Below are positions 14,832 to 49,117 of a DNA stretch of 64,000 bases, piece after piece (position 1 is the first letter of the stretch; the number at the start of each line of letters is the position of its first letter). The notes under the pieces are model-generated. The model was not told the DNA's origin, did no database searches, and saw only the letters and a program-made list of their open reading frames with translations. Source of the stretch: Phoronis australis (Eukaryota > Animalia > Phoronida); contig NMRA01000262.1 of assembly GCA_002633005.1 (NCBI GenBank), positions 6,902 through 70,901 on the forward strand. The letters are read 5' to 3'. The position numbers and the translations under genes were made by a program.

Positions 14832-14898
14832 TGTTTGCAGTGTTGTCATTGGCGAGATGTGTCAACTGTATAAAGCCTTACCACTTGATATTACACTA

Positions 14899-17121: not shown

Positions 17122-17290
17122 CCTAGCTTTGCCTTAGGTCTAGAAATAGTTGTTATCATGACTCCTAGCTTTGCCTTAGGTCTAGAAATAGTTGTTATCA
17201 TGACTCCTAGCTTTGCCTTAGGTCTAGAAATAGTTGTCATCAGCACTCCTAGCTTTGCCTTAGGTCTAGAAATAGTTGTGATCAGCAGTC
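17122..17290. repeat. 42-bp minisatellite, 4 copies
   Basis: Unit CCTAGCTTTGCCTTAGGTCTAGAAATAGTTGTTATCATGACT. Confidence 0.9.
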
Positions 17291-19940
17291 CTTGCAATTG
17301 TCAAAGTTTTGGTGACTCGTCACTTTCTTGTTCTCTTTTTTCCAGGGTGTCATGATTTATCGATACGATGACAAGGTTTGCAGCATGTGCACTGCTCAAT
17401 GCTGATTGGCCAGTCTCAATAGTTTCATTCCTTATTCCTCACCTCCACCTTTCTTTATAACATTAAAACACATAGAAATATTCCATCCTTACTATTTGCC
17501 TTGTGATTTTGAAGTGCCTACAAGTTATGCTGTAATTGTGTTGGGCTTAACAATGAGAATCATGTATAGGCAATCAGGCTTATGTAGCCTGTGTGTATTG
17601 TATTTGGACTGTAGAATAGTGGAGTGCTTTTTAGTCTGGTGACCAGAGAGTGTAACCTGGGGATGCTGGGCGTGTGATTGGAGCTTGCCTCTCAGATTTC
17701 ATTCAGCGCAATTCTCCTGACTGATTTCTCTCAACCTGGAGTCTGTTTTGTGAATGTGACGACAGAAATTTAGTGTTATGCCCCCCACTTCACAATTGCA
17801 TATAGCAATTTGGAGATAATTTATTGAAATTATCTTAGTACCTAGTACTTATGCATGCATATTCTCAGAGGCTGCACTTCGATCAAGTGAGATTTAATTG
17901 TTTTGTTTTTGGAGATATAGCATGCCTGTATCCTGTTGATGAATGCTGGTCCTCACATTTTACTGTAAGGTCACATAGTTTCCAGTCGGGTTGCTCCTAT
18001 AGCTACTACTAAGCCTATGTGTGTCCTTATTTTCAAGTTTGTGCATTCAGCCTAATATTTGCAGACCTACATTCATTTAATTAATAAGTACTGTACCTGT
18101 ATATATTGTCTGAATATAGACTGAAACCCTTTGTTCTAGATTATTGTTTTGCTTTTGTTTCTTACACCTTATGCAGTTTTTTATGAAAATCCTTCAATTT
18201 CTGGTTTTGATTTGCCGACATGCAAAGCTGGGACATTTTAAAAATGAGCTTTTTGGAGAACAGTTGGTGTATAAAGCATATAGTTTGAGATTTCATTTGA
18301 ATATGGTCAGTTTAAATCTCTGTCTCTCTGCCCTGCTTCCTGATATATTTTGAATGTGTTCCAAAGTTTGCCAAATTTGTACAATTCCCTAGGGTTTTAT
18401 ATAACCTTAAGCAGACATTTACAACTGTGTGCACTGTAACTGTTCCCATGTAGCCACAGAAACATGTAGTAGTCGCAAAAACAACAAGGAAATGTTGCAG
18501 TTCTTTGAGCAAGCATCTGTTTCACTGAAGGACAAAAAAATGTTTGAAGTGCTCGATGATCGTATACAGGAGGTTACAAGCATCAATATGATCCTATGCA
18601 GGACAGTACCAACATGAATATGATCCTGTGCAGGACAGTACCAACATGAATAATCAAATGATGTTATTTCCTTTTCGGTCTTTAGACGCTGTTGAGAGTG
18701 ATCAAAATATGCCGTTTTGGATATTTCACAATTTCTCATCAGTGCTTAAAGCAAATCAAGATGTTGAAAGATTTCTATGCGGTTAGAACAACCTCATGGT
18801 TTTTTAGCATTTTTTTGTTTCAAAACCTTGTAGCAAAATTGGTACTAACTCTCACCAATAGTAGGCAATACAGACAACATGTGAGATTTTGTTTCATTAT
18901 TTCTCCATGACACACATGTCACATCAGCAAACATTTTAGAAGCAGTTGAACAATCAAAAAAGGCAGACTTTGCAATTTTTTTTCTGAGATTAGCGAGATT
19001 TTACTGTAAACTAAGTACATTGTGCCGCTCAACCCTTTACTAGGTTCGTGTAGTTTTTGTTACAAACTCTTGCTATCCAATTCATGCCATGTTGTCAGTG
19101 AACCAGATTATTTGACTGTTTTCCTTGTGTTTGTTTTTTGTTTTGGTAATGAGATGCACCATACATGTTGACCGGGTCAACAACCTTTCTGGTGGGGGTG
19201 GACTGCATCTTGTTTATTGTGCCTGGTTCTTTAGCTAGCAATACTTACAGCCTGAGAGTGATTGTAGATTATTTGCCTTATTTGTCTGTCTGTTCAGCAC
19301 TGCATCATGCTGGACCATTGGAATTTAATTGTTTCAAATTTCTCAGCAAAAATATATTTACTGGGATATCAAGGAAATATTTCTCTGTTTATTAGCACTC
19401 TTTGTCTAGATGCACCAACTAGTCTAGTGTCACCATCCTGTGCCAAGGCATATTTCCTTTGTTGTAGCGATCAGAAAATGGCTGTTGTAGATATTTTAGT
19501 GATGGTGAGTGGGTGCTATGGAGATTGTGAGGTAGTTATCATGTTGATCTGCGTCAATGTGTTGAACACAGTGTTACGTGCTGTTGTGACCAGGAGTGTT
19601 ACTATCCAGGATTTTTCTGCGGCTTATAGTACATATGCACAATTGATTACTGCAGAGGTCTCCAATGATCTGATCAGTACGTCCTTTTCTCTTGGTACTA
19701 GTATGTAACTTACGGAGCATGGCATTCAGATACTGTGGTTGGCTATCCCAAGATGCTCTATTCAATATCCTGGGGTCTTATTAACTTCTTATTATAACAC
19801 TGATAATGTGTGTGGAGAGCTGTTTGGAGCTGGTTGTGTGCAGAGATATTATAGATTGTTGTTTTTGTGCCCAAGTTAGGTTGGTCAAGATCCTGTGTTT
19901 TGTGGTAGTAGGCCATCATGTATTGACAGCAGTTGACCTA

Positions 19941-20195
19941 CCGTATTCGCCGTAATAACTGCCCAGGGCTCTTAGAAAAGTTCGTTTCAGGGCACTTATT
20001 ATAACCCAAGGCCGTTGAAACCCGGTCACCGAAACGGGTGAAATCGGAAGCTAAGATTCATCATATTTACGCTCTGTAGCATATTGGTAATCTATGAAAA
20101 GACTTTCTTCAAAACTGTGGTGCATTGCCATCAAACTTTGATGCTAAATTACGATCATTTTACGGGAAATTGTGCTGAAATCCCAGGGCGAAAAT
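19941..20195 (-). mobile_element. Tc2/pogo-like element end (inverted partial copy of the 33753-35250 family)
   Basis: TA|CCGTATTCGCCGTAATAA... is the reverse complement of ~35015-35250. The other end was not located. Confidence 0.75.
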
Positions 20196-21164
20196 TCTGT
20201 GCCATCTATTGGCCATTTTTTATGCTAGAAATAAACACTCCTAGAAGCACACCGTTTGTGGTGCACTCGTTGCTCTTGTTCACAATGCAAAACTTTATTT
20301 CAAACAAAGTAATGGAGAAGTTGTATTGTGAACATATCTCTGTATTCCTTAACATTAAAGTCGCATCCAGTATTTGGTTTTGGACGCCATCTTTTACTTT
20401 GATTATTTGGTTCAACATAGTTAGCACTCTTCATTACTGTTAACAACACCATGGACTGAATAATGTTGTTTTAACGCAACATCTTTATCGCTACAATAGT
20501 TCTTCACTTATTTTGAACAAATTGCCAAAATTGTCGCCATTCTATTGGGCTGCTTTCGCATTGGAGTTAGTTCGAACTAGTTTGCAGTTGGAACATATTT
20601 AAGATTAGAGTGATATCTGCCATGCCAAACTGTCCTCTTTCTTACCAGACCAGACTAACATTCTACCGTCCTAACTTGAAAGCTTCATTGTACTAAACAT
20701 AAGATGTTGCTACGCTGTACCCCAATAGGGATTTGACTACCAATTTCAACAGTATGTGGACTTAAATGGCAACAACGTCGAGAGTGTACGAAATGGCGGG
20801 ACGCAAAGTATTAGCCATCGTCCGCGTGCCCGCCAAGTGGGCGGGCAGATGTTAAATCTGGCGGGCAAAATTTGCAACTGCGGGGGTGACGGCGGGCTAT
20901 TTACATGCCAACATTTACGCGTTTTCTTCTGGAGAGTATACGCTTTCGATACTTAAACACAACACTACAGTCACGAAAAGTAGTCTGCACCAAACCTTTC
21001 ACATTGCGCTCTGACCAACTTTGGTACGCTCTTCAGTTCGATCTTTTCTAGAGTACTAACTTGAGTACCATACCAAATTTAGACTGTTTTAAATCACCTT
21101 CCACATTTTGACTAAAATGTTGTGGTCTAGAAAAAATGTAAGTCCACCATAATGCTACTTTCGG

Positions 21165-21520
21165 AAAATAATGCATATACCGTTACGAAGTTAAAATAAT
21201 GCGTATACCGTTATGAAGTTAAAATAATGCATATACCGTTACGAAGTTAAAATAATGCGTATACCGTTACGAAGTTAAAATAATGCGTATGCCGTTACGA
21301 AGTTAAAATAATGCGTATACCGTTACGTAAGGACCAGAGAAGTCCTTTATGTTTGTGCTGTCACCAGCTATTACTGAACTGATGATCCCTTACATGAGTT
21401 AGGACCAGAGAAGTCCTTTATGTTTGTGACTGTCACCAGCTATTACTGAACTGATGATCCCTTACATGAGCTAGGACCAGAGAAGTCCTTTATGTTTGTG
21501 ACTCACCAGCTATTACTGAA
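21165..21520. repeat. Abutting 28-bp (x~6) and ~71-bp (x~2.7) tandem repeats
   Basis: AAAATAATGCGTATACCGTTACGAAGTT repeats to ~21327, then AGGACCAGAGAAGTCCTTTATG... repeats. Confidence 0.9.
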
Positions 21521-22405
21521 ATAATAGGTTCTGTCAGGTTATCATAGTTGACCTACTTATATTGTTTACATCAAATGCAATGTCTGTTAATCTCCTGTGT
21601 TGCAGGGGTAGAGTGTTTAAACCTTTATGTTTATTTCTATTCTATTTACCAAACATGTCAACCAGTGCGATTTCTATCTTCCGCACTTTTTGCCAATTTG
21701 AAATAACTCCAATCGTCAGTTTTCCCGAAGTACTGCTGTTTTTTAAAGCGCCTGATTCTCCATTTAATTCTCCCATATCGCCAAAACTTGTCATTTTTTA
21801 TTGTTCACTGTCTGATAAGTTTGCTACAGATAGTGGACACTTTACCAAATGTTGTTTTATGCCAGTACAAACTGTGCTAGTAGTATAGGCTAGTAGTAAG
21901 CTAAAGTTATCTTAATCTTCATTTTGTGAAGAAATTTGACAAAATGGATTTCACATGGCGGTCATATTGTACACTATAAATGAAGAATTACCATATAGCT
22001 GATTCAGACTGGGACATTATGTCATCACTCAGGACTGGTGTGCCACTGTATTCAGCCGGCGATACAGAACTGCAATTTTGATATTTTTTTACAAAATTAG
22101 TAGCTTAGTTACTTTGTCTTGTTGCTAAGGTCACTAGAATGTTGCCAAATCAAACACTGGAAATTTCTGTTATTTCATGATGCTGTTGACCTTTGTTTTA
22201 ATGGTCTAAAGCTACCTTTCTTCATGCTTTGTGGTTTTAATAAAATAAAAATCCACTTTTATGCGTTATTATTTTGGGTAGAACAATTGTTTTCAGCTTT
22301 AATTTGTGTTGAAGCAGTCACATTTTCCGTATGTTTTCTTTGTAACCACAGCGCATCACCAAAGTTCTTCCGCACACACCTCAATTGTCATGTTTCGCTT
22401 TTCAG

Positions 22406-22498
22406 TCTTTCTCATTGGCCAAGAAGCGAATAGTCCATTACACCAGTTTTGACGCAAGGAAACGAGCAAACGCCGCTTTTCTAATAGGATGTTACGCT
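22406..22498 (+). CDS. CDC14: CDC14 exon 4 ([31 protein letters not shown])
   Basis: tttcag|...GCT|gtaagt, 93 nt. Contains the KRANAA motif. Confidence 0.97.
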
Positions 22499-23334
22499 GT
22501 AAGTACATAGATGTTTAGTGATTATGTATTTGCCTACTATTATGACCTGATTTGTACATTCACGTCACATCATTTAAAAAAAGTTGTAGGTCTTTGGGTT
22601 TTTTCCGATTCAGGTAACCATGGTCGCAGTGTAGTACTTTTTTACAAAATTATGTGTTTGGGTCAATGGGTGTGCTCTGACAACTGGTACACCCTTTGTA
22701 TGCTCCCGTGGAGTTGAGGATTACGATTGACCAATTAAGTCCACAGCCCGGTAATAATTTTCAAAGTTTTTAGAAATTTACCTTGCAGAACTGTTTATCA
22801 AACCTCACTTGACATCATAATGACAACTGGCAAACTAATCTCAATTCAAAATAGTGATGCGCTCAGCAGCAATGTACAACTACATGGGAAGTGCCCTACA
22901 AATGCACAGGGTTGTGGGTATTATTGTCTTAGTGGTTGAACAGGCTTGATGTACGCCAAAGAGATGCACCTGCAAAACAGCAACCTCACACCTTGTGCGG
23001 AAATTTGAGCTTGCAAGCACTAACTCCATACCAAGAAATAAACTATTGCAACTAAACTCAAGTCATGGGGTTGTGATGCCAACACGGTGTGCTTGGGTGA
23101 CGGGAATTGAGGGTCTGGGCCATTTTTGTTACTTTGCAACACATTCACATCCTTTTTGGGCCTATTTCGTTAAAGAGACCAATCAAAGGAAAAGTGCAGA
23201 GAAGAAAATAAGATGAAAGAATTTTTAGTTAAGAAGTTTGTTTGAGTTTTCAAGGAGAAGATGTGCATCGGATTTCTTTGAAAACTGCTTCATCTAATAT
23301 CTTGTAGGAATTAAGTAAAGTTTTTCTTTGCCAG

Positions 23335-23414
23335 ATTATGTATTTAAAGAAGACGCCAGAAGAGGCGTACAGACCATTAGTAGCAGGAAATAACCCTCCA
23401 TTCTTTCCCTTCAG
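23335..23414 (+). CDS. CDC14: CDC14 exon 5 ([27 protein letters not shown])
   Basis: gccag|...AG|gtaagt, 80 nt. Confidence 0.96.
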
Positions 23415-24629
23415 GTAAGTTGAGTTATTTGTGAACTCTGTGGTGTATTATTTCACCATCCTATGCGTTTCGCCATCATACTACTTCTACAGTTTTTGAC
23501 CATTTTGACACACAGGAGGCTTAACTGGGGAAACTGAAAACTCTGGACGTAGACATTTAAATGCGAAAATTTAAAGATTCTTTGGTGTAAGGTTGTGAAG
23601 AATCTTAGAAAAATGTCCAAATTTGGCTAACTTCAGAACATCATATCTCAGAAATGAAACTTTCAGGCACTATGCTTTTTTGCACTGTTCTCCAGACGAT
23701 TTTATGAATGTTTTTTTAAAATGTTCCATGAAGTACGAACAAAAATGGAACAAGTCTTAAGTCACTTTTCAGAAAACAGACATTAGGGCACTTTGTACTT
23801 TCTATTCAAGGTGTGTTTCAACTAGTCTTTTACTGTTATTGTTGTGGGTTAGCATAAACTGAGGGAAGTTATCTGCAAAATATGCCAACTGGGCTAGTTC
23901 TTTCAGTTGTTCTCTTACTTTCACACATTAGCTTGTCTATGTGCTTTGCTTACCGGGATGTGGGGCTGTTAGTTTAGCATATAGCCATTTGTCTACACTA
24001 GGCATTATTAATGTAAGTTAATGATTGTTGGATACTGACGTAGAGTAAGTGGGTGTTACCTGTCAACAGGCAAACATGAAAATTATGACTCAGTCATCAA
24101 TATCCTTTGAGCAGAAAACTGGACACAAGCTTTGTTCAGTCTATTCAGGATTTAATCCATTATGTATTTTGAGCCTGACCCACTAAGATTGGCCCTTGCT
24201 TTCACACTTGGTCCTAATCAATAGTTGGTCAACTGTTATTATTGACCAATTACCTAAGGTGAGCTTGTTTCCATTCATTATTTGTAATATGCCTCTAGAG
24301 GGAGCTGCTGATAGGTAATACTTTCCAACTACAGACCAAAGGATTACTTACAACCAGCAATATACATATATTGAGAGAGGAGAGCTTGATTGCTTTAGAT
24401 TCCTAGCTGTCAGTGATAGTGTCCCAGTGACCTGTTCTGTTCTAGCCTCATCTCCATTGTTGGGTTCTGTTTGTTACGTTCAAAATAGGGAAATTAGGGC
24501 TCTTTAGGATATTCTGTCACCGTGGATCAAACTCTTACTGCTATTATATTGGAAAATAGGGATCACAAGTTATGAGCAGAAAATGTCTTTTTTAAACTAT
24601 TTTAATGTATACATGAGTTATTTGCTTGT

Positions 24630-24648
24630 GTACACACACGCACGCACG

Positions 24649-24683
<35 letters not shown>
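24630..24683. repeat. (CA)n/(CACG)n microsatellite
   Basis: Directly visible. Confidence 0.95.
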
Positions 24684-24685
<2 letters not shown>

Positions 24686-25411
24686 TATGGCATGAGGTTT
24701 AGATTTTAAAAAGTTAGTTTTGTTGAATTTTGTCAGTCTGAATGTATGTAAGCCAACTGCCATCTTGGTGATCTTGTTTATCTCCAATTTGGATTTGTTA
24801 CTTGGAGTATGATGTAATTACTTTCTGTCCCTGTGTACAGTGTATTGAAATAGACCCGTCCTGAAATAGTACAGCATCACTCTCATTCTAAGATATTTAC
24901 CCACAATGAAACACTGTACAGTGTATTGAAATAGACACGCCCTGAAATAGTACAGCATCACTCTCATTCTAAGATATTTACCCACAATGCAGCACATGTG
25001 TCAAGACATTGTCTTGCTTCTACACATAAATGTCTAGTTACTATCTCATGTCTAATCGTTACGTGTTGCCAAAATTCGCCCTTTTCACTTTGCAAAAGGT
25101 TCTAACATCGTTACGAATGACCAAACTTTTTCAGAATCTTGGTGTGATGGTAACATTTATTTGGAGCTACTTATATGAAAAAGATGAAATTTCACTTATT
25201 GGTCATATTTATGTCCTGAATTGGTGACACTTGATGGTATTGCATTTAGAGTTGGAATTGTGACATTGGCAAATATCAGTAATGGATACACAGTGTATTA
25301 TTAATCAACTCATTAGTGGAGGACATTTTGAAAAGTAGGTCAGTCATGCAAAAGTAGGTCAGTCATGCTAGATACTTTGCTATCAAGAAAGAGAAAGTTT
25401 CAATTCATGTT

Positions 25412-25766
25412 CAAGGTACCTAAACTACACGGTTAACGGACTCATAAACACGGTCATGGATGCTTGAACACGACTCACGTACCTGCAAACACCATTCACT
25501 GACTCACAAACACGGGAACGGACTCACAAAACACGATCCATTCATCCAAATACATGGGACACGGACTCACATTCACGAAGAAACACGGTTAACGGACCGC
25601 CAAACACGGTTAACTTCGATAAAGCATGCACGGGTCATGGACTCATCGGCTTCCTGAGACAGCTGACATCTACGTTTTCTATGTAAACTGTGTTTGAGAG
25701 TCCGTGGTGTTCATGCGTCCGTGACCATGTTTATGAGTCCGTTAACCATGTAGTTTAGATACCTTG
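25412..25766. mobile_element. MITE with long (~55 bp) terminal inverted repeats
   Basis: CAAGGTACCTAAACTACACGGTTAACGGACTCATAAACACGGTCA... pairs with ...TGACCATGTTTATGAGTCCGTTAACCATGTAGTTTAGATACCTTG. Internal GGACTCA/ACACGG subrepeats. TSD ambiguous. Confidence 0.8.
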
Positions 25767-25837
25767 GTGTTAGGCATATTGTGTTCACTGTAAGTAGTGC
25801 AAGAATGTTGTGATTTTAATCTTTCTGTTTGTAATAG

Positions 25838-25904
25838 GGATGCCTCCTTTGGAGCCTGTACATACAACCTGACACTGTTGGACTGTTTACATGGTCTGAA
25901 CAAG
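25838..25904 (+). CDS. CDC14: CDC14 exon 6 (DASFGACTYNLTLLDCLHGLNK)
   Basis: aatag|G GAT GCC...AAG|gtaaga, completing the PFRDAS motif. Confidence 0.97.
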
Positions 25905-25928
25905 GTAAGATGGACATTCCGTATTTGG

Positions 25929-26229
25929 CATCTCTCTAAGACTCACATCTCTCTAAGACACATCTCTCTAAGACTCACGTCTCTCTAAGACACATCTCTC
26001 TAAGACTCTCATCTCTCTAAGACTCACTCGCATCTCTCTAAGACTCACTCACATCTCTCTAAGACTCACATCTCTCTAAGACTCACATCTCTCTAAGACT
26101 CGCATCTCTCTAAGACTCGCATCTCTCTAAGACTCGCATCTCTCTAAGACTCGCATCTCTCTAAGACTCGCATCTCTCTAAGACTCGCATCTCTCTAAGA
26201 CTCGCATCTCTCTAAGACTCACATCTCTC
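25929..26229. repeat. ~17-bp minisatellite, ~17 copies, just downstream of the exon 6 donor
   Basis: Unit CATCTCTCTAAGACTC(A/G). Confidence 0.95.
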
Positions 26230-26731
26230 CACAAACTTGCAAGATTCTACATTGAACTTTATCAGGTGTCCACGTTCAAATTCTTCAGCTAATCCGTGGG
26301 GATTCATAGTGAGCCCAGAATGGTAACTGGTTTGTTGTAGCGATTACAAAAGCCAGACATTGGTCTTAGTGAGCCATATAACGGATTGTATTTAATATCC
26401 TGCTACTGTCCCTTCCAGAAATCTGTCCATTGCTCAAAATTGTCCAAGGTTATACAAAAATTAATGTTGAAATTTTGGTTAGGTGTTTTAAGTTGTTCAG
26501 CATACGTTTTGCTTCATCTTTAGCTGTACGACATTTTTAACTCAGGAAGTTAGAACTTAAATTTTTTCAAGATATCCTCACTGTTAAGATTTGCCAATAT
26601 TTGTCTTTTTGTACCATGTTCTGTGCCTTTTCGTATTTAGTCTTATTCACAATGGCTGACTCAATATCAACTAGCTTTTGCAGATTATGGCAACTGTCAA
26701 CTTTTCATCTCATTTCCATGTTGTCTTGCAG

Positions 26732-26794
26732 GCCTTGTCCAATGGCTTTTTCAACTTTGAAACATTTGATGTTGATGAGTACGAACATTATGAG
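26732..26794 (+). CDS. CDC14: CDC14 exon 7 (ALSNGFFNFETFDVDEYEHYE)
   Basis: ttgcag|...GAG|gtgagc. Acidic inter-domain linker helix. Confidence 0.97.
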
Positions 26795-28162
26795 GTGAGC
26801 TGTTGTTTGTCATCTAGAGTGCTTTGGAATGTTTTTAAAACTCAAATTGCTGATTCAAAATAAAATATTTTTGCTTCCTTACTGCGAGTTGAAATTGGCT
26901 CACATCAGTCACTAGCTGTGTTGGACAAGTCATCTATATGAAAAACAAAGTCATTACCGTGGTTACTGTTTCCATGGTGATTCAAATCTTTGATTCTATG
27001 GAAGCGAACAGCCCCCTTGAGAGTTTTGGCATGTTGACTCAAAAATGTTGAAATGTGACGTGTCATTGTTGCTAACTTGTACCACTGGCATGCTTGTTAA
27101 GTCAACTCAAACTTAGTTATCCTGGGTGAAAGATGACTTTTTTAGTATTTTCAATATGTACATGCCTTCAACTGATTAAAAGTCTCACACAACTCTTATC
27201 AAGTCAAGAACAGATGGCAAACTTCAAACTGGAGTAAAAGTCTCACGCATCGCATCGCTTGTCAAGTCAAGCACAAACTTCAAACTGGAATGTGTTGGAG
27301 CTGAATGTTGCCATTGATTCACTTAATGAATCACTTCAGTCCATGGTTTTGTCCTGAAACGCTGGCTTATCGTATTTCAAAACCAAAACTAAGTGTTCCA
27401 TCCCAAAAGATGAAGAAAATCGGTGCTTTTCAGGATTGGTGTTTCTTGGTCTTTACAATTGAGTAAAATTTACGATTTTGTTATAATTGTTTTATGTATT
27501 CAACTGTATGGGATTTGAATTGTATACATATAGTATGGGTTTAATATTAAATTGATATTACAATATGGTTCTCAGACTGTTGAATTTTGGATGTAATGTG
27601 TTATGGTTTGGCTGTTTTTAAAACATTTTTATTTCACTACCCTCACTCGTGGGGAGGGGCAAATTTGGTGGGACTCTGTCATTTTCATTGCAAAAATATC
27701 TCGTTTTCATTTTGCAATTATTTTACTCTTTTGTTGAATTGCAGACAAAATGTTTTGAGTTGTGCACCTATTTTATGGTCAATAGCAGAAGGGGAGACAA
27801 GCTTGCTTACATTACAATGTCGATCTTAATTCTTAATTGTAATAAGCCCGCTTTTTTGGAGTTTTTGTTGACAGTTGTGACTGAAGTCAGCTGAAAGTTT
27901 GATGCAGTCAATGATTAAGCCGGAAATTTTTCTTCAAAATTTTCCGATTTTTGAGATGTATTGGAAATTAGCATCCAAGTGATTCTGCTGGATATGGAGT
28001 CAAAGCTTGAAAACCACAATTTTGAAAACAGTTATGGTGAATTGTCTGAGGACTTGTTTTGATGTGAACTTTCTGAGGACTTGTATAGATTTGATGTCAC
28101 AGTACCAGCAGTTAAGTCGGTTAGGTAAGCTTTGCATTTCGATGTGTGTTTAAATGTTGCAG

Positions 28163-28250
28163 AAAGTAGAAAATGGTGATTTCAACTGGATTATACCCCA
28201 CAAATTTCTGGCTTTCTGCGGGCCGCACCCTAAGAGCAAGATAGAAAATG
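28163..28250 (+). CDS. CDC14: CDC14 mutually exclusive exon 8a ([30 protein letters not shown])
   Basis: ttgcag|AAA...AAT G|gtaggc, 88 nt, phase 0->1, intact. Too short to appear in the ORF track. Confidence 0.92.
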
Positions 28251-29205
28251 GTAGGCCTTGTTATCACCTGCTTTTGACACGGTCATCGTAGGGACCTCTT
28301 TTTCCGGTGGCGGAGACGATTTGAATTGACATTTCACGTCCGTTTGTCTATCTTCTTAGTCTCTGTATCAAAATAGCCTGCCCATTTGCTTTCCAAATTT
28401 TGAACCAACTTTTAGAACCACTGAACTTTCTCTTCACAAACTCAGAAGTATTCATTCCCAGCACCAAAATGCGAACTTTTGGAACAAGACCAAAGCATTA
28501 AGATGTATACTCCGATTGCTGTATCACCGGTCAGACGAGGGTATGAATTCATTTTCCCAAGGGGTGGCCTGCAATTAGAAGTCTGACTTTATTTTAAGGA
28601 TGTATTTCAATGATTTGGAGCGTTTATTCAGGGTTTGGAAGATAGATTTACGGTTTACCTTGTGTGTAATTTCATCAAACTTGATTCACTATCTGGTCCT
28701 TCCATGTGATGAATCAAGTATTGTATTTTGTCTCTACATTCTTATGTCTTTTGATCTCTGGCACGTATGGTCCCTAGCGATGACTTGAACAGGGTCTGGT
28801 AGTTAGGGAAATACTCACTCAGATGACAGAGAAAACTGGCTTTACCCGAATATTTCCTTAAGAAAAGATGAACATAATTTTAGAAGAATGTACTTCGGAT
28901 ATTGTACCTCTTGGTGTAAGCTATTTTGTTTTGTTATTCTATCTTATCAAACTGGTTATCAGGAATTGATGCAACAATATTTTTACAGATTTCTGAATCT
29001 GTCTCTTCCAAACACTTTGCTATGATGAAAATAAGGAAATGTTATGGGCATGCATAAGTCAAAAACCTATGTTCAGAAGGGATTATTATCAAGGTATCAA
29101 AGCCACTGTGACTGTCATCTACTGCTACATTCTCCCTTTTACCAGACTCTGTGCCAAGTAATTCACTTCACTCACATGTTCTTGTCTCGTGTCTTACTTC
29201 GACAG

Positions 29206-29293
29206 CGTGTTGAAAACGGTGACCTTAACTGGATAGTCCCCGAGAAATTTCTGGCCTTTAGTGGGCCGCACCCAAAGAGCAAAGTTGAGAATG
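29206..29293 (+). CDS. CDC14: CDC14 mutually exclusive exon 8b ([30 protein letters not shown])
   Basis: gacag|CGT...AAT G|gtaacg, 88 nt, phase 0->1, intact. Confidence 0.93.
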
Positions 29294-30438
29294 GTAACGG
29301 GTTCCCCTAGCTAGCTAGCTCATCGTTTATCGTTGTTGCTCACTAATTTCTTACATTGCTTCTAGTTGTTTAAACAACAGCTTCCTTACGGCTTTATCTA
29401 TCCAGATTGCATTTTGTTGTTTGTCTTGATGTGTGTATTCACTGAAGCTGTGTTAAGAAATGAACTCTGGTTTGTTTCACTACCGAGTGGTCCTAAATTT
29501 CTGTCATTGAACCTGCATTTATTTTTATTTTTCTCGGGGTCCATTTCATGAAATGCCGCTTAATACATTTTTTGCTCTTTATTTCATGATGTTTTTGCAA
29601 AGTTATATTTTGGAAAAATCCTCTTTATTGTTTATATATAACTTGTAACCATGTTTTCCAAAAACGCTTTGAAAATTTGAATGAACAATTTTTGAAAATA
29701 TTTTCATGAAATGGGACCCTAATTCACTTACATGGTTAGCCTTTCCATATTTCTGTCATTGTGGATTGCTCGTTAAATTTTTGTTGCGACTTTAATTTTG
29801 CTCTCAATTCTCCCAACATATGACTGTATTGTGTTTTTTGATACATTATATGTGAGTCTGTGTGTCTGTGATATCTTACTCGCGTTATTTACTAACTCAA
29901 GATTTGTCCTTTGTTGTAAAGGTGGTGATGCGATTGATGTAGGTGGACTCTACTAATGGCTACTGAAAACTGGTGTCTTTATTTTCTTATCCAACAATAC
30001 AGTGTTGGCTGAATCATAATAAACATCAAAGCCAGTTCACTTTACTGCACTTAAGTGAAATGTTTTAGTCTTGTAGCATATTCAGTAAATCCAGCTTTTT
30101 ATTGACTTTGGTGTTTATCCACAAGTTTTAGACGACGTGTATTCCCAACATTTGTTAGGTCAGTGATGCACAACAACTTTTATTTCATTTTTCGAAAAGA
30201 TCACCAAAATCATGATGTGAACTGTAGACAATACAAATTCAGCTTAATTTGAAAGTGCAGTTTTGTCAAATTCTATGATTTATGTTGTTTTTTTTTTGAT
30301 TTCCTGTACGATTTTTACTTCAATGGAACTAAACTTAAAGTAGTAAGATTTTTGTGCAATCTACTGTAGATTTGCATGTATGTTATAACAGATCTATTGT
30401 GTAATTTTAGTTCTGTCACAAGTTGTTCCATATTTCAG

Positions 30439-30669
30439 GCTACCCATTGCACGCACCCGAGGCCTATTTCCCCTACTTCAGAAAACACAATGTGACCACC
30501 ATAGTGCGACTGAACAAGAAGATTTATGATGCACGGCGGTTTACAGATGGTGGCTTTGACCACCACGATCTGTTCTTTGTCGATGGCAGCACGCCAAACG
30601 ACAATATTCTTAGGAACTTCATTGAAATCGCTGAGAATGCTGAAGGAGCCATAGCTGTCCACTGTAAAG
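30439..30669 (+). CDS. CDC14: CDC14 exon 9 ([18 protein letters not shown]...[10 protein letters not shown]...AIAVHCK)
   Basis: tttcag|...AAA G|gttagt. Contains the general-acid DGS loop and the start of the catalytic HCK. Confidence 0.98.
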
Positions 30670-31116
30670 GTTAGTATGTGGTGGCTTCTTGTGAAATCAC
30701 ACGGCAAAGTTGTACAATCTGTGTTTTTACAAAGTTTTTAAACAAAAGAAAGAAAGCATTAAATAATGTGTTTGCATTTACTCTCTCTATTAATTTGTTA
30801 GCATGTACTCTCTCTATTAATTTGTTAGCATGTACTCTCTCTCTCTCTAGTAATTTGGTGTTATTACCTGGTAGTGAGCTAGCTTTTTATCAACAGTTTT
30901 TCAACATCAGAGTGTTTATATGTTTTAGCATGGTGGAAATAGTATTTCACTAAGTTTTCATCAAAATTGCCTAATTCTGTCATAGAAGGCAAAACTTCTG
31001 GTATTTGATTGATAGAAAATTAACTTCTTTTTAATGAACAATTTTAGGCAAGAATACATTTTGCTTTCTTTATTAATTAGTTTCATGTCTTATCGTCTGT
31101 TTTTTTATGTTTACAG

Positions 31117-31255
31117 CTGGTCTTGGACGTACTGGTACCCTGATAGCCTGCTACATGATGAAGCACTACAAGTTCACAGCAGCTGAGTGTATAGCTTGGC
31201 TCAGAATCTGTCGACCGGGTTCTGTCATTGGTCCACAGCAGAATTATCTAGAAGA
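31117..31255 (+). CDS. CDC14: CDC14 exon 10 ([18 protein letters not shown]...[14 protein letters not shown])
   Basis: ttacag|...GA|gtatgt, completing the CX5R motif HCKAGLGRT. Confidence 0.98.
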
Positions 31256-31838
31256 GTATGTGTTTGCTCCCTATGCTGCTGTGTCACGCAATATGTCATG
31301 ACTAGTTACACACGTGCACCTCTGTCCAACTAGTTACTCACGTGCACCTCTGTCCAACTAGTTACACACGTGTATCATTTCAAAGGTACAACTTTAAAAG
31401 GTTTAATACCTTCGCACCTACTATTAAAAATTTTGATTTAGACTATTTACTGTTATGAAATTGAATTGATCTTGTTTTTTACTTTGGGGCTAGTTTCTAT
31501 TCTTGGGAAGAACCGACGTGTCGTTATCACTTGAGACAGTGCTTGTTTATTTGCTTGTTGCACCGTGTTAGTAACATTCTCCGAAGCAGTATAGCTAAAC
31601 AGATAATTCTGAGTATTTTATCATAACCAATTCATGTTCAAACAACTGATCAGAGTGTTATGACGTTTTTTAAGAGAAAATACTGCATGGGAAGAGAGCA
31701 TCAGAGTGTTGCGTATACGGCATGGGAGTGTTGCGTATACGGCATGGGAGTGTTGCGTATACGTCACGCGACTATAAATTGTAAGAATTGTAGGTCAAAT
31801 AGATCTTGTATTATTGTGTCTTCAATCTTCACTTTCAG

Positions 31839-32046
31839 TAAACAATCGTGGTGTTGGATGCAGGGTGACATCTATAGGTCACGCCAGAAGGACCGGTTCC
31901 GTGACAAGTCACGAGACCACGTGTCAGGCATCCTCAGTGGCGTTGACGAGATGAAAATCAGTGATGTTCTCGAGAACAACAACAAGTACATGACGTCGGC
32001 GTACGACCGCATCGACGACGACGTAGACGGGCGGTATGCGGATGAT
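31839..32046 (+). CDS. CDC14: CDC14 exon 11 (KQSWCWMQGDIYRSR...YADD)
   Basis: tttcag|T AAA...GAT|gtacgt. 'W.QGDI.RS' motif, phase 2->0. Confidence 0.9.
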
Positions 32047-32577
32047 GTACGTTATCGGTCAAACCCGAGTGTAAATGTTAAGATTTTCTTTCATCTTGTT
32101 TCCTAGAAGTGGTGCTGGTGTGCTTGTCTGTCCTTTGTTGTGGGTCTCAGGTACTGTATACTGTCTTTATGATGACTTGAGCTGAAAACTGTTGAACTTA
32201 ACCAGTCAAATGATCACTGTTGTTACCAAAGTTCTGTCATTACAATGTTTGAATCAACATTATATGGTTTTGTTAAATGGAAGCAGAGACAATGAAATTT
32301 AGTGACGGTTATCTTTTCAATGTTGTTACCATTCACATCTGTGTTGGTTATCCTTGTAAAATTGGGGAATTATTGGCATTAAGAAGATAATGGCCTATGA
32401 CTAAAAACATTAAAGGAGAATGCCACCCTATTTAAATAGTCTTTTTTATCGTCTTAATTGGTCTATATCCACATCATCTCTTATACGGTCAAACTCACCT
32501 CGCTGAGAGGTGTTGCGTGAGGAAGGTGAGAAACGACACAGCGACGTCAGTGGTTCTTCTGTGGAGTGAATGCTACT

Positions 32578-32796
32578 ATGGTGTGGTGTACTGTTCCCAC
32601 TTGTGCGCACTATGAAGCAGCGAGGAAAGCGTGTGTATCGTTTTTTCGATTTCCTCGAGAGCCCGTGATGCTTCGGAAGTGGCTTGCGGCAGTGAAGAAT
32701 GAAAAGTACGCCGTTAATACCAAGTATGAGGCCGTGAAACATCTCCGTGTCTTTGGCCGGCATTTCGTCGACAGTGATTTCATTTGCCAAACCTGA
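32578..32796 (+). pseudogene. Degenerate THAP zinc-finger ORF within the Kolobok-like element
   Basis: MVWCTVPTC...SFFRFPRE...RKWLAAVK...LRVFGRHFVDSDF follows the THAP C2CH pattern, with the third Cys replaced by Phe (TTT), and stops immediately after the domain. Confidence 0.8.
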
Positions 32797-33752
32797 GCTC
32801 ATGCCAGGGTAGAAAAAGAGACAGAGGCTGAAAAACGTGAATCAGCTGTTGATCAGTTTTTGATTACGGAGAATTGTTGTTGGCTATGAAAACATAAACA
32901 ATTACAATTAATCCAAAGCATGAGAATATAACGTATTAATATAACCTGTTTGATGACTTACTCGTTTGTCACGCTTCTGTTTGGACGTCCGGGTGTAGGA
33001 TGTTTTCACCAGTTCTTTTTCCCAGCCCTAAAAAAACGTCTTAAACACACCTCTGTTGAGATGTGGTGCAAAATCAGGGTGGTCCATGAGACACATCTGT
33101 GCTTCTTCAAGAAGGCGTTTCACTTGCAGCAAACCTAAGCGTCAGTCATTTCCATTATCGAGCAGTTATCGCACTGACACCACGACGAGTCATTCAAACA
33201 GTTTTCAAAACTATCCATATGTTGCGTTGCCTGTGGATGTTCACGGTGTCTCTCTACCTGTGATGTCATCGTAGGATGAGCACTCGTCTAAGTCGAGATT
33301 ACGAGTTGCCATGTTGACGTTTATTAATTGCTGTGCGTTCTGTTTCAAATTGAATTATTCTCACCATAACCAATGCTTATATAAAACTGAAACAATTGTC
33401 TGCCTCTTAAGATACAATTTGTAATGCCTTTGGAGTGATCGTGAGTGTAGTTGAGAAGCCAGCAATGAATAAATCACTGCGTTACCAGCTTTAGATGCAA
33501 TAAAGCTTAATTGACCGGGCACCGAGGCTGTGTGAACGCATGATAATTCAGTGTTTGCTGACAGAAAGCTGTTGTGAAACTGTAACTCAATTTTACATCC
33601 TGTGGTCAGATGTTTGGGGAATCTTTATTTATATATACATGTACATTATTCGAATCAATGTTATTGTACAGCCTTTGCACTGACGGTTTTGTGGGAGGGT
33701 AACCTGACTTCGCGGCCCCCGACGAGTAAGTAGATTTGCAGTGTCTCGGCTA

Positions 33753-35250
33753 CCGTATTCGCAGTAATAACCGCCCATGCCCCTATAAGTGCCTCCCACG
33801 TATTTCCATCCTTTGCTAAAATAAGCGCCCAGTCCATGAACGTGTACGTGCGAAAAATGCCTTACTTACAGTCCTAAAATTCTACAGTAACGTCTTCAAT
33901 TTATCAATAATATCCAACAGTCCTGAAAAAATTATTGGGCGCAGAATTTGTAGACCACAAGCCTCACCGCTATGTCGGTATTTAGCCGTGACTGTACACT
34001 TCAAACTCCGCCATGCCTCAAAACAAACACAAAAGTTCTGCTGATATTGCGAGGACCAATGGTCTGGCCTTTCAGAACAGAAGTAGTGTACTTGTCTATG
34101 GGATTACTTTGTAGATATTTCCCAGTTTCAACAGGAATCCAAATTTCTTTGTAGGCCTACACGTGAAAACCGCGAATCGAAGACTAATTAAAAGCTTGAC
34201 CAGTGTTAAAAGCACGTGGCAAGGAAGCGCGCGCTACATATATGAACCTGTCATCAAAGACATTAGTCAGGAACTATCCATTCATGAAACGGGTAGCATA
34301 GCATCGATAAGAAATGAATATTGGAACTAATTTCCGACAGTTTCTAATACTATAAAAAATGTTTGTGTTATTTTAAAATGAATTGTTTGATTAACCATAA
34401 TTGGTTTTTTAAGCCAAATATCCGATAATATGACCACTGACGGTGAATGCTTTAACACCCTTACACCGAAAAATAACCGTCAGATAGTCACATACGCCGC
34501 ATCCAGCCACACGGCGACTAATATGGTGTTACCGAGACAAATGTCGAACGTTTTAAGCACATGAGACCGGCAAGTGCTGAATGAAACACGCTCTGGCTTA
34601 GGCCTACTGCTTGTGCAAATTTCTTTAGATACAATGCACATCTAGCTCATTAGATTGCGTGGCTCTGGCCAAAAGACGGTATCTGCTCTGGCAAATGAAC
34701 TCTGATGACACGCACGCGCTCGCTTACTCACAAACGCAGACAACTTCAAAACAAACGTCACGTGACAACAACGTGTGTTCGTCCAGACATTTTTCTCATG
34801 TTGCGCCGATCATACATGTAGATGTTACGATGTAGTAGCATAGATTTGTACTTAAACCTGCCGTGATCTTGACTCCACAGGAACTTAAAAATCTAAGGGA
34901 CGCTACTTGGAAAACTTAAGGAGGATTTCAGGTAATTTGCTCGAGTCTAAACTATATTTTTATTCAAGCATTCAAGTCGCCATATCGACTATTGCGAGGC
35001 AGGCAGTCGGTGAGTTTTCGCCCTGGGATTTCAGCACAATTTTCTGTAAAATGATCGTAATTTAGCAGCAAAGTTTGATAGCAATGCACCACGGTTTTGT
35101 TGAAAGTCACAGAGCGTAAATATGATGAATCTTAGCTTCCCATTTCACCCGTTTCGGAGACCGGGTTTCAACGGCCTTGGGTTATAATAAGCGCCCCTCC
35201 CTGAAACGAACTTTTCAAAGTGCCCTGGGCGATTATTACGGCGAATACGG
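33753..35250. mobile_element. Complete 1.5-kb Tc2/pogo-like non-autonomous element, TA TSD
   Basis: TA|CCGTATTCGCAGTAATAACCGCCC...GGGCGATTATTACGGCGAATACGG|TA. CCGTATT termini with a TA target are typical of the Tc2 group. No transposase ORF. Confidence 0.85.
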
Positions 35251-37170
35251 TAATTCACCAATATAATGACGTACACATTATTTCTTTGGCTCACTAGCAT
35301 AGTCTTTTCGTGACCGGAAGTTTAGTTTCCAACTTTTGGTGGTTTATGTTTGTGATGTCTTCAGTCCGGCCGCGATGGGCCTGATCCGGTTCCGCTAATA
35401 AGCTGACACCAATAAGCATGTTGTGAACTGCTGAACAGACTGCGTTCGAACCTGTTGCGTCATTGGTTAATTTCAACACCTCCGTCTGCCGTCAGGTAAA
35501 AGAATTGTACTTGCTGTTATCAAGTGGATTTTTCATCTAAATTGATACAAAATAAGTTGTATTTTGGGGTGGCATTTTCCTTTAATCCTCCAAAGCAATA
35601 TGACAGGAAATGGAAGTAGGGTGATTGTCTGGTTAAACTCTAGATGGCGTTGTTTGGTCTTTAGGAGTAAAAAAATGAAAGCACATCTGTCCATGGTTGT
35701 TCTGTGTGCTATATCTTTATGTGTGTTTTGTGCTGTCAAGTTGGCTTGAGTATTTTCTTTTGTTGTTGTCCATGTATTAGAGAGCTATTTGCTGGAAATG
35801 TGCAAGAGTGTCGCTGTTTCCATGCCCTGTTTTACTTGTTTAAGGTTATACAGGAGCCAAGAAGTGACAGATTGGATTCATATAATACTGTGCTGTGTTA
35901 GCAGCTGTTTTTGAAGTCTTCCACTTTTGCATTGAGAAGTTATCAAAGCATGGTTTTTGATTTTCAAGGAAAAAATTGATGAAGCGCTTAAAACAAGATG
36001 GAAATCGCAATTTGGAAATTTTTAACGTTTTTGATGTCTCATCTTGAACATGTATCCCAAATAAAATTTGATCACGTTATTGATAGTGTTGTTTTGCTAT
36101 CAATATACCTTTTTTTTCGTTAAATTTTACTCAACACATGATACTAATGGATTGGTAAAACGTAAAATTAAAATTCTATAGTCTTTCTACTTTCAGAAAA
36201 TTAAAACTTAGTAGTTAAAAAAATCTATAGTTTTGTAGACATTTTGCTCAGTACGCATATTTGTCTATAACATTTTACGTAACCTTGATATCCACAAGAC
36301 ATGGTGTAAACAACTTATTTGGAAAGTAGTGTGTATTGTGAAGCATGGTTATTGTAAACCTTCCACAAAAAATGAGCAAAATTACCTCACATTCCTTCAA
36401 TGTCCTGTGGCTCACATCTTCCTCAGTCATGTTGAGTTTTGTCACCAGGTGGCATGGAAAACAATGCATTGTATGTTTGGCTAAGATGGACCATAATTTG
36501 TTGTGGTAGCGTAACAAAAAAACATTCTTTGCTATTTAATGCTTCTTGTCCACAGATATTAGCAAAGCGAAGTTTATTCTGAAAAATGTGTTTAATGTTC
36601 TAAGTAACATTAAAAATACATGTGACTGAACATTGAACTGGTGACTCAACTATTGCACTCCAGTTTTGTTGTAAAACCATGAAAGTTCAATATCACTTCA
36701 TGTTCGTCTCGGTTTAGGTGTTTAGCTACATTACACCCTTTTTTAACTGGCAAATTGGATCTTTTACACTGATAGCATCAGGCTAAAAATTATCTTACTA
36801 AGAAAAACTTTGTTTTCTGTTATCAAAAAGAACATAAAATCCTCAACAGGTCAGGAAATGCGATTTATTCAGTTTCCCCAACCTTGAATTGTAACAATGG
36901 CGTGGAGGGAATTCCATTCTGAAATAGTTGTCATGTGACTGCAATGGCCATTAACCATAAGTGCATTGCAGGTCAGATGTTGGTGTGTTCTCTTTCATTA
37001 AGAACTTGGAATATGTTAAAGTGACAACTAAGCAGTGTGTAGTTCACCTTGAAACACTGTTTACAGTAAATTTTGTTCAAATCGTATGTGAGTTTGATAT
37101 GATCCGAGTGTCTGTTTCAATTTCTCTTGTCTATGGTTGATGTCTCTGTGTTGCTGTCTCTCCCCCACAG

Positions 37171-37274
37171 TACGCTGGCACCTCCACCAGGAGTGGTATG
37201 ACACAGGGCGACAAGTTGAACCAGTTGAAGATGCAGAGGAAACACCCAAGGTCAGCCACTACCGGCACCATGGC
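37171..37274 (+). CDS. CDC14: CDC14 exon 12 (YAGTSTRSGMTQGDKLNQLKMQRKHPRSATTGTM)
   Basis: ccacag|...GC|gtaagt. Contains the conserved metazoan CDC14 'TQGDKL' motif. Phase 0->2. Confidence 0.93.
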
Positions 37275-38072: not shown

Positions 38073-38261
38073 TTCAACATCACAGGTGGCAGTTAAGCCT
38101 CACGTGACACGTGACCAACTAGTTAGGCCTCATACTCACGCTAGTTACAAATCATCACCCAGTAAGGGATCATACAGGCACTATAGTCATGATGAGCGTG
38201 CGCTCAGTCATAGGTTACGCCACTCCGGCTTTACTAAGCCAAGACGATCACTTCACGACAG
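38073..38261 (+). CDS. CDC14: CDC14 probable cassette exon 13 (189 nt, phase 2->2; STSQVAVKPH...RRSLHDR)
   Basis: ctttcag|...AG|gtagat. Open in the frame required by exons 12 and 14, and skippable without a frameshift. No conserved motif recognised. Confidence 0.65.
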
Positions 38262-38721: not shown

Positions 38722-38925
38722 ACTTGAAGATGGCAAACCACACAAGCGTTCTACGACACAACCACTCCGTGTGGCTGGCTCAAAAAGCGCTCAGTCTGTC
38801 ATGTCACCGCTCAAGTCATCCAAGGTGACCTCATTGCATTCTGGGAACTCGACTTCTGCGGGGTCATCAAGTGTTAAGCGAGTCAGTCGACACACCAGTC
38901 CAACCAGCTCCAGTTCTATCAAGAC
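38722..38925 (+). CDS. CDC14: CDC14 exon 14 (LEDGKPHKRSTTQPLR...SSSSIKT)
   Basis: cttcag|...AAG AC|gtgagt, 204 nt, phase 2->2, Ser/basic-rich tail. Confidence 0.88.
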
Positions 38926-43887: not shown

Positions 43888-44035
43888 CACATCTAGGGTA
43901 GACTCGGGCGCGTACAATGCGCGGGACAGCTCCAGAGAACCGTATTACACGCGGTCGAGAGATAACTTAAGAGATAGCCGTGATCATAGCCCTTGTTCCA
44001 CCAACAAGTATAGGTCCAATTATTCTACACTGTCA
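43888..44035 (+). CDS. CDC14: CDC14 exon 15 (TSRVDSGAYNARDSSREPYY...KYRSNYSTLS), frame-switching exon
   Basis: tcacag|C ACA...TCA|gtaagt, 148 nt, phase 2->0. Open frame, CpG-richer than the flanking intron. Confidence 0.82.
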
Positions 44036-46226: not shown

Positions 46227-46227
46227 N

Positions 46228-46387: not shown

Positions 46388-46703
46388 CTTACATTGTCAC
46401 ACAATTATAATGCACTTTGACCTGTCCTGTGTCATAGGTCAAAGACTGCTTTCTCTCGCCATATGTTAGGTCGTCTGGCAAAGACCTGATTTGTTTGTGG
46501 CCTGAAAGTTGTCACTAGGAACCTATTGTTGACCTGACATGCTTTAGGCGAGCGAATCAAGTCTAGTCACAGAGATCCATTGATTGAATAAAAAAATTAC
46601 AATTACGATCAGATTCATTTCATTAGCACTGCTTGTCTATTTTTGCCTACGTGCATTTGAAGCATGTGGCTTGTAACTATATTAAGCTATTTTTCTTTCT
46701 CAG

Positions 46704-46752
46704 TCGCTCCGCAACTCATACACGAACTACTAGATCTACAGTGCTGCGATGA
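46704..46752 (+). CDS. CDC14: CDC14 terminal exon, coding in two frames: SLRNSYTNY* (stop 46733, after exon 15) or RSATHTRTTRSTVLR* (stop 46752, after exon 14)
   Basis: Strong acceptor tttttctttctcag|TCG. Both frames give CDC14-like C-termini, followed by an AT-rich 3'UTR-like region. Confidence 0.8.
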
Positions 46753-47394
46753 TGCCCTCTTGTGGTGTTCCCAATGGCACGTCTGTGATTCTACCACCCT
46801 CTCCATACAACAAGTGGTGTTTACCTTGTGGTGCAAACAAGTGACGGTGTTTACTGTTTTACCCTGACCAGATTTCTACTGTGCTGCCCCCTTGTGTGCA
46901 CCCGTATATTTATACTATGTTTCATATGTTCTTATGGTTAGAATACAACAAGTCAGTTATAAATAACAGTGTTAGTGTGAGTGTTACGGGTATTTATTAA
47001 CTGTAGTTTGTTAATATGAAAAACAATTGAGGTTGTTAATGTGGTTCTTGAGACTGATTCAATTATATAACTGTCAGATGATAATGCACTGTTTGGTCAC
47101 AAATTTATTTCCATTGGTGTAACACTTAAATACTACCCTTGACTTACTGTCTGCATGTCTGATAGTAAAATATTTTGATAACTGTTTCATGTATCTGCAT
47201 ATTTATGTTTATCTTGGAATGAAAAGTTATACTGCTTATGCTACGGTAAGGGTGATTCTTTGTGTGATTTTTTTACATCTGGTACTGTATCCTTTATGGT
47301 TTGGTGAACTTAGACACTTTGACCTTGACATTTGATCTTTGACCTAAGATTATGATCTCACTGGACATGTCTTTAGTTTGATACCCTGTTTTTC

Positions 47395-47400
47395 AATAAA
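47395..47400 (+). terminator. Candidate polyadenylation signal for CDC14
   Basis: First AATAAA downstream of the stop codons (~650 nt). The UTR may extend further. Confidence 0.3.
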
Positions 47401-49117
47401 TTATGACTATTAATTAACTCACTGGAGGTCCTTGTGGAAATTATATTGTTTTAATATTAACAGTTTTTGAACATCAGAATCTTTTAAGAACTCGAAAACT
47501 TTTATTCTGGTCAACGCATGCCTGCAATTTTCTTGTTCAGCATTATTTTGCATTTGATTACACGTGCAAGTGTGAAGCATTTGTCTCAACTGATGTCTTT
47601 GTGTGTGTTATTGAAGAGCGTTGCACTTTCACCTGATTGCAGCAATAATGATGCGGAGTGGTAATGTTTTTAAATCAACATTTTAGCAACTGTTGCTTGT
47701 CTTTGTATATAAAGCGTATTTAGATTTTTGAATAAGATTATTTTTGTACGTTTGCTCTGTATTGTCTACTAAATTTTAGATACTATTTTAAGAGAACATT
47801 ACATGGCGTACAAGCTTAGATATGAAAAGTGAGCTGTTGTATTGGCGTTGAAATCATCTCCCTGCAGTGTTCTGCGTATTGACTTTAAACTCATTGACAA
47901 CCTTATTTTTGTAAATTTTTATGCATGCAGATAAAATGAATTTAAAGACATCTGTCGCTTGTGATTGGCCTTTGGCATGATGTAATCTAAATAGATTTTT
48001 AAACTGCGTAGTTACAGTAAAGTTTATTCAAATTCAAACTAAAAATGCTGTAATTTTTATTTTTCAAATGCTCATACTGCATAGCTAAATAATTGTGTGT
48101 TAGTTGATGACAGCTGTTCAATACAAGCTGTGCTTATGGTGATGTCAATTTTTCTTCCTATATTATATTTTGTTGATAAATCTGATCAAATTTTGCCATT
48201 CTGCTATATTCTATTCTAAACTGGGGAAGCATTAAAGACAACTGTTTGTCCATGGAAATTTGTGCTTCTAGATCTAGGCCTTGGTGTAATTGTATGGACA
48301 TGCTACCTCTTTAGAGCTACTTAACAGCTCAGAGGATTTTCATTACTCTAGACTGTTTATAGATGGCGCTGTGCGTGGCTATAATTGATAAACATGTATC
48401 CTGTCCATGTTTTACTTTGGGCTGAAATTGAGTGTGCTCTAGTTCAGCAAATCCTGTTTACAAAAGTGCTTTGATCAGAGAGGGCTCAGCGTTTTGTCAA
48501 AAAAAATTCACATACTTAGTTATTTTAATTTGTTAATTTGCACAATTTTCAAGAATACATTACTGTGTTGAATTTCTTGTACACTTGTTTATCAACCACA
48601 AGTGAATACAGGTGAATACAGGTGAATACAGGTGAATACAGGTGAATACAGGTGTAAAAATATCAAAGTTCTTGCTATCTTCGTTTTCTTAATTTTTTGG
48701 AAGTGGAAACGTCAGGGATTCTGAATGTTGTTTGTTACCAATCTGCCATTGTTTTTTTTTTCACCTCTACATTCATAACAAAACAACTGGTCTTAATGAA
48801 ACTACTTTCATTTGAAAATTTCATATAGGGTTAGGATTTTTATTATTTGTTTCTAATGCTCGAAACCAGGTATATTAATTTACAAAAAGAGCCCCTCGAT
48901 GAAAAACTGAACTCGTAATGGTAGATGTCTTGGTAAACGAAAAATGTACGTCGAATTGAGTATGATAGATAAATAATGATCTTGAAAAGTGTCGTTGAAA
49001 TTTTCGAAATTCGTGTTCCTGACCACGTGATGGAAACAAAACGTCAAATGACATGAAATGAAGGAATCTGATGAGGAATTGCATTTTGAAAACAACCCTA
49101 GACTCGCCCGTGCAGTN

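Follow-up and report, generated by a model that had tools for sequence, protein, structure and literature searches.

The last coding exon of the CDC14 phosphatase gene of the phoronid Phoronis australis raises the question of whether one short stretch of DNA can specify two different protein C-termini, read in two frames according to the splicing of the exon before it, and, if so, how old this arrangement is and what became of it when the gene was duplicated in vertebrates. The gene lies in the window, i.e., the whole stretch of 64,000 nucleotides of contig NMRA01000262.1 (assembly GCA_002633005.1) that was analysed here. The first-pass annotation, made from the sequence alone, proposed that a frame-switch cassette governs the choice between the two ends, that an ancestral overlapping exon encoded both of them and that each vertebrate paralogue subsequently kept one frame. 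Taken as a whole, we consider it quite probable that the terminal exon is used in two frames through a 148-nt cassette, that this organization likely goes back to the ancestor of protostomes and deuterostomes and that the switch likely alters the site or the binding of the phosphatase.

The CDC14 gene is complete in the window, where it occupies the forward strand from 8750 to about 48500, as do the parts of the gene described below. Its upstream coding exons (8750..37274) were modeled as 12 exons separated by GT-AG introns; RNA joints were observed from 28250 onward, and the exons before 28100 are model only. Membership of the CDC14 family was judged by tandem DSPn and DSPc domains with an HCx5R catalytic motif, and the spliced model, which contains HCKAGLGR, has its best PDB matches in CDC14A (E 1.4e-39) and CDC14B and shares 73-77% identity with bivalve CDC14 over about 500 aa. 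A quick tree, midpoint-rooted with no outgroup and with SH-aLRT as its only support measure, placed the gene with lophotrochozoans (95) and apart from the group formed by CDC14A and CDC14B (97). Judged by this tree, the window gene is a pre-duplication co-orthologue that falls inside neither the vertebrate CDC14A clade nor the CDC14B clade. Two further features were observed in the upstream part of the gene. The intervals 28163-28250 and 29206-29293 are tandem duplicated 88-nt exons, both bounded by GT-AG introns, of the same phase and 78% identical in DNA, which encode near-identical segments of the catalytic domain and are candidate mutually exclusive exons; the first was used by 58, 39, and 22 reads in RNA runs X2, X3, and X4, and the bin depth over the second was 0-0.67. 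An intronic open frame of 88 codons (32530-32796), which we take to resemble a THAP-type zinc finger, lies in a region to which reads of diverged repeat copies align in both orientations.

The 3′ end of the gene carries the elements of the switch. An upstream exon of 204 nt (38722..38925), entered and left in phase 2, has a donor that can be spliced to the cassette or directly to the last exon. The cassette itself (43888..44035) is a Ser/Arg/Tyr-rich exon of 148 nt with GT-AG boundaries that is entered in phase 2 and left in phase 0, and thus shifts the frame. A single acceptor AG (46702..46703), preceded by a pyrimidine tract and common to both forms, accepts the donor at 44035 when the cassette is in or the donor at 38925 when it is out. 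On the one hand, inclusion of the cassette sets the dual-coding part of the terminal exon in frame 0, which reads SLRNSYTNY up to a TAG stop codon (46704..46733). On the other hand, skipping sets it in frame +1, which reads RSATHTRTTRSTVLR up to a TGA stop codon (46705..46752), and the final residues of this second tail are 3′UTR in the inclusion isoform. Both stop codons are inside the last exon and are followed by an unspliced 3′UTR common to both forms (46753..48510), which shows read depth and no joints. The acceptor, the 148-nt exon and both readings had been described exactly by the first-pass annotation, as a recheck of the sequence established. A second cassette, absent from that description, is an in-frame exon of 189 nt (38073..38261) delimited by the joints 37274>38073 and 38261>38722. 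It is lineage-specific and His/Arg-rich, had no match among stored proteins, and its donor sits in the first unit of a tandem repeat of 47 nt x 6 (38229-38517). The 148-nt cassette weakly matches the tail of Lingula CDC14 (E 0.001). Most of the last intron is occupied by a 42-nt x 44.5 tandem array (44357-46226, 99% near-perfect), which lies downstream of the cassette and upstream of the dual-frame exon and contains an assembly N at 46227. The predicted spliced products measure 513 aa when both cassettes are skipped and 619 aa when both are included.

Both splice forms are present in RNA. The four runs listed under the species label were aligned, of which X2 to X4 belong to one study and the contig run X1 to another; the analysis covered about 18-19% of each raw run. 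All reads matched the 3′ exon at 95-100% and in the sense orientation, and the loose read ends listed before the last exon all fall at 46704. In X2 and X3, these loose ends gave as their consensus the final 30 nt of the cassette (60 reads each, with agreement 0.97 and 0.86, respectively), which corresponds to the junction 44035->46704. In X4 (39 reads, agreement 0.89) and in one X1 contig, the consensus was the final 30 nt of exon 38722-38925, which corresponds to the junction 38925->46704; in every case the consensus letters were identical to the respective exon end. The skip junction was therefore read from loose-end letters; it was not counted as a joint because its two exons were on separate mapped stretches. 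The joint 38925>43888, which enters the cassette, was supported by 60, 52, and 2 reads in X2, X3, and X4, and the cassette bin depth was 18.7, 18.1, and 0.98, respectively. The 189-nt cassette switches together with the 148-nt exon, being included in the same runs, with 64, 59, and 0 reads for joint 37274>38073 and 43, 49, and 0 reads for joint 38261>38722. The minor form amounts to roughly 4%, 18%, and 14% in X2, X3, and X4; these figures are rough upper estimates obtained by hand arithmetic and rest on the two exon ends being only 23% alike. Inclusion thus mostly dominates in X2 and X3, and skipping mostly dominates in X4 and in the X1 contig. X2 and X3 mainly encode the 619-aa form and X4 probably the 513-aa form, an assignment made from per-exon reads with the cassettes unphased on single molecules.

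No joint was found downstream of either stop codon between 46390 and 48590 in the reads of X1-X4, and neither mRNA is therefore predicted to be a target of nonsense-mediated decay (NMD). One exon behind one acceptor is thus read in two frames through upstream splicing, each form is abundant in some run and neither is a predicted NMD target: the last exon of the window CDC14 is a real, expressed and sample-regulated two-frame exon, set by a frame-shifting cassette as had been anticipated. The 3′UTR differs as well between runs. Four X3 reads with a poly(A) loose end place a proximal 3′ end at about 46963; coverage falls after about 46960 in X2 and X3 and stays high to about 48500 in X4, and the length of the UTR may co-vary with splice choice.

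Annotated pairs of isoforms with both endings were found in bivalves, a snail, a bryozoan, amphioxus, vertebrate CDC14A and teleost CDC14B. The two tails read, up to their stop codons, ISSSYSKY and RSVPHTRSTKAAVIR in oyster, IHGSYTLY and RSTAHTHSTRSLRKAF in the bryozoan, PLKPTHTYY and RSSQRIHTTRASLHH in amphioxus, SLQSEYVQY and PFSLNMFSTKALLLR in gecko CDC14A, and SLHTQS and HSIPKARAPLLR in teleost CDC14B. Isoforms of the relatives are mostly predicted gene models, and dual coding in these species was deduced by back-translation of protein pairs, chosen where both tails are annotated: for each pair we asked whether one DNA sequence can encode the two tails in frames 0 and +1, all stop offsets being tried. 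In a set that includes the window and in which one pair spans two genera, 22 of 22 pairs fitted best at the offset of the window, namely six residues and a stop after the first stop. The compatible run was 6-7 codons long in the four CDC14B pairs and 9 codons long in the other 18, and shuffled tails matched this fit in 0-15 of 5000 trials. An overlapping set of 20 pairs gave the window's stop offset in 18, the two exceptions being the bryozoan, whose tail is one residue longer, and a catfish CDC14B, whose first stop lies two codons earlier. The recurrence of this two-frame register across phyla exceeds what chance would produce. The isoforms also part at the same protein position in 14 species pairs, and chordate cassettes open with a common RLA-S motif. 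Several other observations were made in the course of these comparisons. Oysters (P0124, P0130, P0134) and a manakin CDC14A (P0268) have annotated isoforms that contain all or part of the cassette and yet end in the basic tail, which indicates that additional routes into frame +1 exist. In Oncorhynchus kisutch CDC14B (P0393 and P0387), two-frame compatibility runs over 29 codons, and teleost CDC14B appears, from such back-translation, to have a further upstream exon read in both frames. A search of the ESM Atlas with the oyster tail returned one match at 0.80, a lead only.

The recurrence of both tails bears on whether their residues matter. Of the 34 distinct frame +1 tail types listed, 28 count exactly six residues from the K/R, usually with L/I-R at the end; these residues, past the first stop, belong to the UTR of the inclusion form, and yet their length is kept, which argues for selection on frame +1. 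Conversely, given the skip protein alone, the chance of the frame 0 stop is 0.08-0.25 per lineage under equal codon use and that of the terminal Tyr 0.25-0.5, and both were kept in nine of the nine deep lineages examined (the window, bryozoan, oyster, scallop, clam, mussel, snail, amphioxus, and coelacanth CDC14A). Multiplied by hand over lineages, the stop chances give about 1e-7, a value that is indicative only, given the shared ancestry of the lineages and the pre-selection of pairs in which both tails are annotated. From protein-level register and residues, rather than dN/dS, we infer that both frames are conserved and under selection. It could be argued that inclusion or skipping of the cassette is all that matters and that the second frame is a passive, NMD-escaping end whose residues have no function. 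The overlap is indeed just 9 codons, the terminal Arg of the basic tail is replaced by His in amphioxus and by Trp in birds, cyprinid CDC14A tails vary between 4 and 7 residues, and five of seven mammalian second-frame entries run past the old stop. However, any nearby stop would escape NMD, and yet the length is constant in 28 of the 34 tail types; moreover, basic tails of the form T-[K/R]-x4-R recur in lineages that range from the window genome to gecko and to teleost CDC14B. We accordingly hold a passive second end to be unlikely, if the most serious of the alternatives, and favor selection on both tails.

The distribution of the two tails is nonetheless uneven. Among the entries listed, only the short tail was seen in Lingula, Mya, Solemya and shark CDC14A, only the basic tail in Capitella, and other endings in Owenia and two land snails. 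The register varies in the bryozoan and Amia (7 residues), in cyprinid CDC14A (4-7) and in catfish CDC14B, where the stop is shifted. Among the best 150 representatives at 50% identity, a pattern match, some of it by chance, found a Tyr-type ending in 6 and a basic-type ending in 5, and most of the distant ones have neither tail type. The two-frame exon was not found for ecdysozoans, non-bilaterians, echinoderms or hemichordates among the entries recovered.

Vertebrates, which have two CDC14 paralogues, offer a view of how the pair fared after gene duplication. According to the first-pass annotation, the ancestral exon was split at that point, so that the short frame stayed with CDC14A and the basic one with CDC14B. 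In line with such a division, human CDC14A isoform 1 (NP_003663.2, P0584) ends with SLQSEYVHY, exactly as the first-pass annotation had it, none of the six human CDC14A entries examined uses the second frame, and the short tail of CDC14B is degenerate in teleosts, where the overlap is three codons shorter, the terminal Tyr is lost and, in catfish, the short-tail stop has moved. Both frames are nevertheless found at the ancestral spacing in CDC14A from coelacanth to dog and in teleost CDC14B. Both CDC14A tails are annotated in coelacanth, ray-finned fishes, salamanders, lizards, crocodilians, turtles, birds and Canis. Since both tails occur in CDC14A and in teleost CDC14B, the frames were not split by the duplication; judged by these annotated tails, both vertebrate paralogues inherited both frames. 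A split at the duplication is consequently very improbable: it is contradicted for the duplication itself and holds only as a late trend. That part of the proposal stands, in a partial form. Among 259 proteins from searches of mammals, a few of which are not CDC14A, 86 have the short CDC14A tail and 7 the second frame; of these 7, the dog and jackal entries retain the ancestral second-frame stop after PFSLNMFITKAPPLR, and the cheetah, mole-rat and three shrew entries have lost it and read through. No terminus of human or other tetrapod CDC14B was recovered in the homologue searches, cluster look-ups or representative search, and the termini of the two tetrapod-like CDC14B representatives (P0727, P0758) are encoded by exons other than this one. 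The later decay is partial and opposite in the two paralogues: the basic tail has become relaxed in placental CDC14A, as has the Tyr tail in some teleost CDC14B.

Convergence, in which protostomes and chordates would separately have come to skip the next-to-last exon and splice to a short terminal one, gains something from tails that are short and low in complexity, from a cassette that aligns poorly between phyla and from a comparison made on the proteins of the relatives, but it is marginally less probable still, as the frame offset, stop spacing, phases, protein position and residues in both frames are all alike across six lophotrochozoan lineages, amphioxus and both vertebrate paralogues. 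Shared inheritance is thus preferred. One stop-to-stop register across phyla suggests that the two-frame exon was likely already present in the ancestor of protostomes and deuterostomes. That it arose before the vertebrate duplication, as initially proposed, is borne out by the pairs of molluscs, bryozoan and amphioxus, and the origin is likely bilaterian. The bilaterian ancestor lived over 550 million years ago.

As to what the two ends may do, the splice switch alters the length of the disordered tail and the last residues, and the catalytic domains are unchanged. With the cassette in, the protein would acquire a Ser/Arg/Tyr-rich disordered segment and a 9-residue tail ending in Tyr; with the cassette out, a shorter protein would bear a basic tail ending in T-[K/R]-x4-R. 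This swap probably sets the localization of the phosphatase or its binding partners. PDZ-binding C-termini have Ser/Thr or a hydrophobic residue at position -2 and a hydrophobic last residue. The short tails end in [S/T/V/P]-x-Y, and the Tyr end could, at a guess from motif classes, be a PDZ-type ligand. By a similar guess, the basic end could direct the protein to microtubules or to the nucleus or act as an Arg-degron. The Arg/C-degron of FEM1 ligases consists of a terminal Arg in an R-x-x-R type context (PMC12580893), to which the basic tails, with a common terminal Arg (absent in amphioxus and birds) and K/R-x4-R spacing, are a loose fit. A reading of the basic tail as an SxIP (EB-binding) motif was rejected on account of a mismatch at the first position. 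In human CDC14B, 3′ splice variants are distinguished by localization to the nucleus or to microtubules, and a variant without the tail goes to the nucleus (PMC2422853); likewise, CDC14A without its disordered tail concentrates in nuclei, and deafness results (PMC12796106). The exon offers a concrete handle on the role of the CDC14A tail, whose loss leads to deafness (PMC12796106), and on the differing localization of CDC14A and CDC14B, in that it marks two tiny motifs as selected within a disordered tail that is otherwise unalignable. It also shows whether, and in what way, gene duplication parcels out ancestral splice isoforms between paralogues. A bolder reading, which we advance tentatively and rate as a little less than probable, is that this is the oldest splicing-controlled dual-coding exon described, with both frames kept since the bilaterian ancestor, separately selected signals in the two tails and an incomplete sorting of isoforms in mammals. 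If this is true, tails of 6-15 residues would be targeting signals, e.g., ciliary or cortical vs. nuclear or microtubular, and mammalian CDC14A and CDC14B would be diverging through the slow, still incomplete sorting of two ancestral isoforms.

The mechanism has known counterparts. A literature search, which had subscription papers outside its coverage, found no description of a CDC14 two-frame exon. The CDC14A rows in the supplements of two studies (PMC13160074 and PMC13247117) concern other, NMD-type events, and CDC14B is absent from the supplementary sections concerned; the 27 nucleotides recoded here are below the 60-nt threshold of the latter (PMC13247117). Human CDC14A dual-coding region 343 (PMC13160074) was considered as this exon and set aside: its alternative isoform is flagged as NMD, and its canonical frame is common to isoforms 2 and 3, whose tails and lengths show no use of the terminal exon. 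The 3′ variants of human CDC14B likewise alter localization through C-terminal splicing, but, as far as the text of Rosso et al. (2008; PMC2422853) describes them, no two-frame exon or deep conservation is reported.

The class of mechanism is that of NMD-insensitive frame switching near the 3′ end, which CDC14 has in common with other genes. As in MAP2/MAP4/MAPT, MARK1/3/4, DCLK1/2, and ATP2B1-4, non-triplet splicing picks the frame of the last exon (Tress et al., bioRxiv 10.64898/2026.05.28.727796), and those cases also share with CDC14 alternative C-termini, an origin before gene duplication, retention in paralogues and short overlaps. That study counts 90 dual-coding regions that predate jawed vertebrates, of which three families and one ATP2B1 region are conserved across chordates (Tress et al., bioRxiv 10.64898/2026.05.28.727796). 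CDC14 has no occurrence in its main text, and its supplements could list the gene. The oldest cases that it names date to the chordate ancestor, whereas the CDC14 exon extends to molluscs, a bryozoan and the lophotrochozoan of the window. The CDC14 exon thus belongs to a known class and is probably older than the oldest cases found described. Dual-coding exons are usually young, and the case of CDC14 would move the class back to the bilaterian ancestor.
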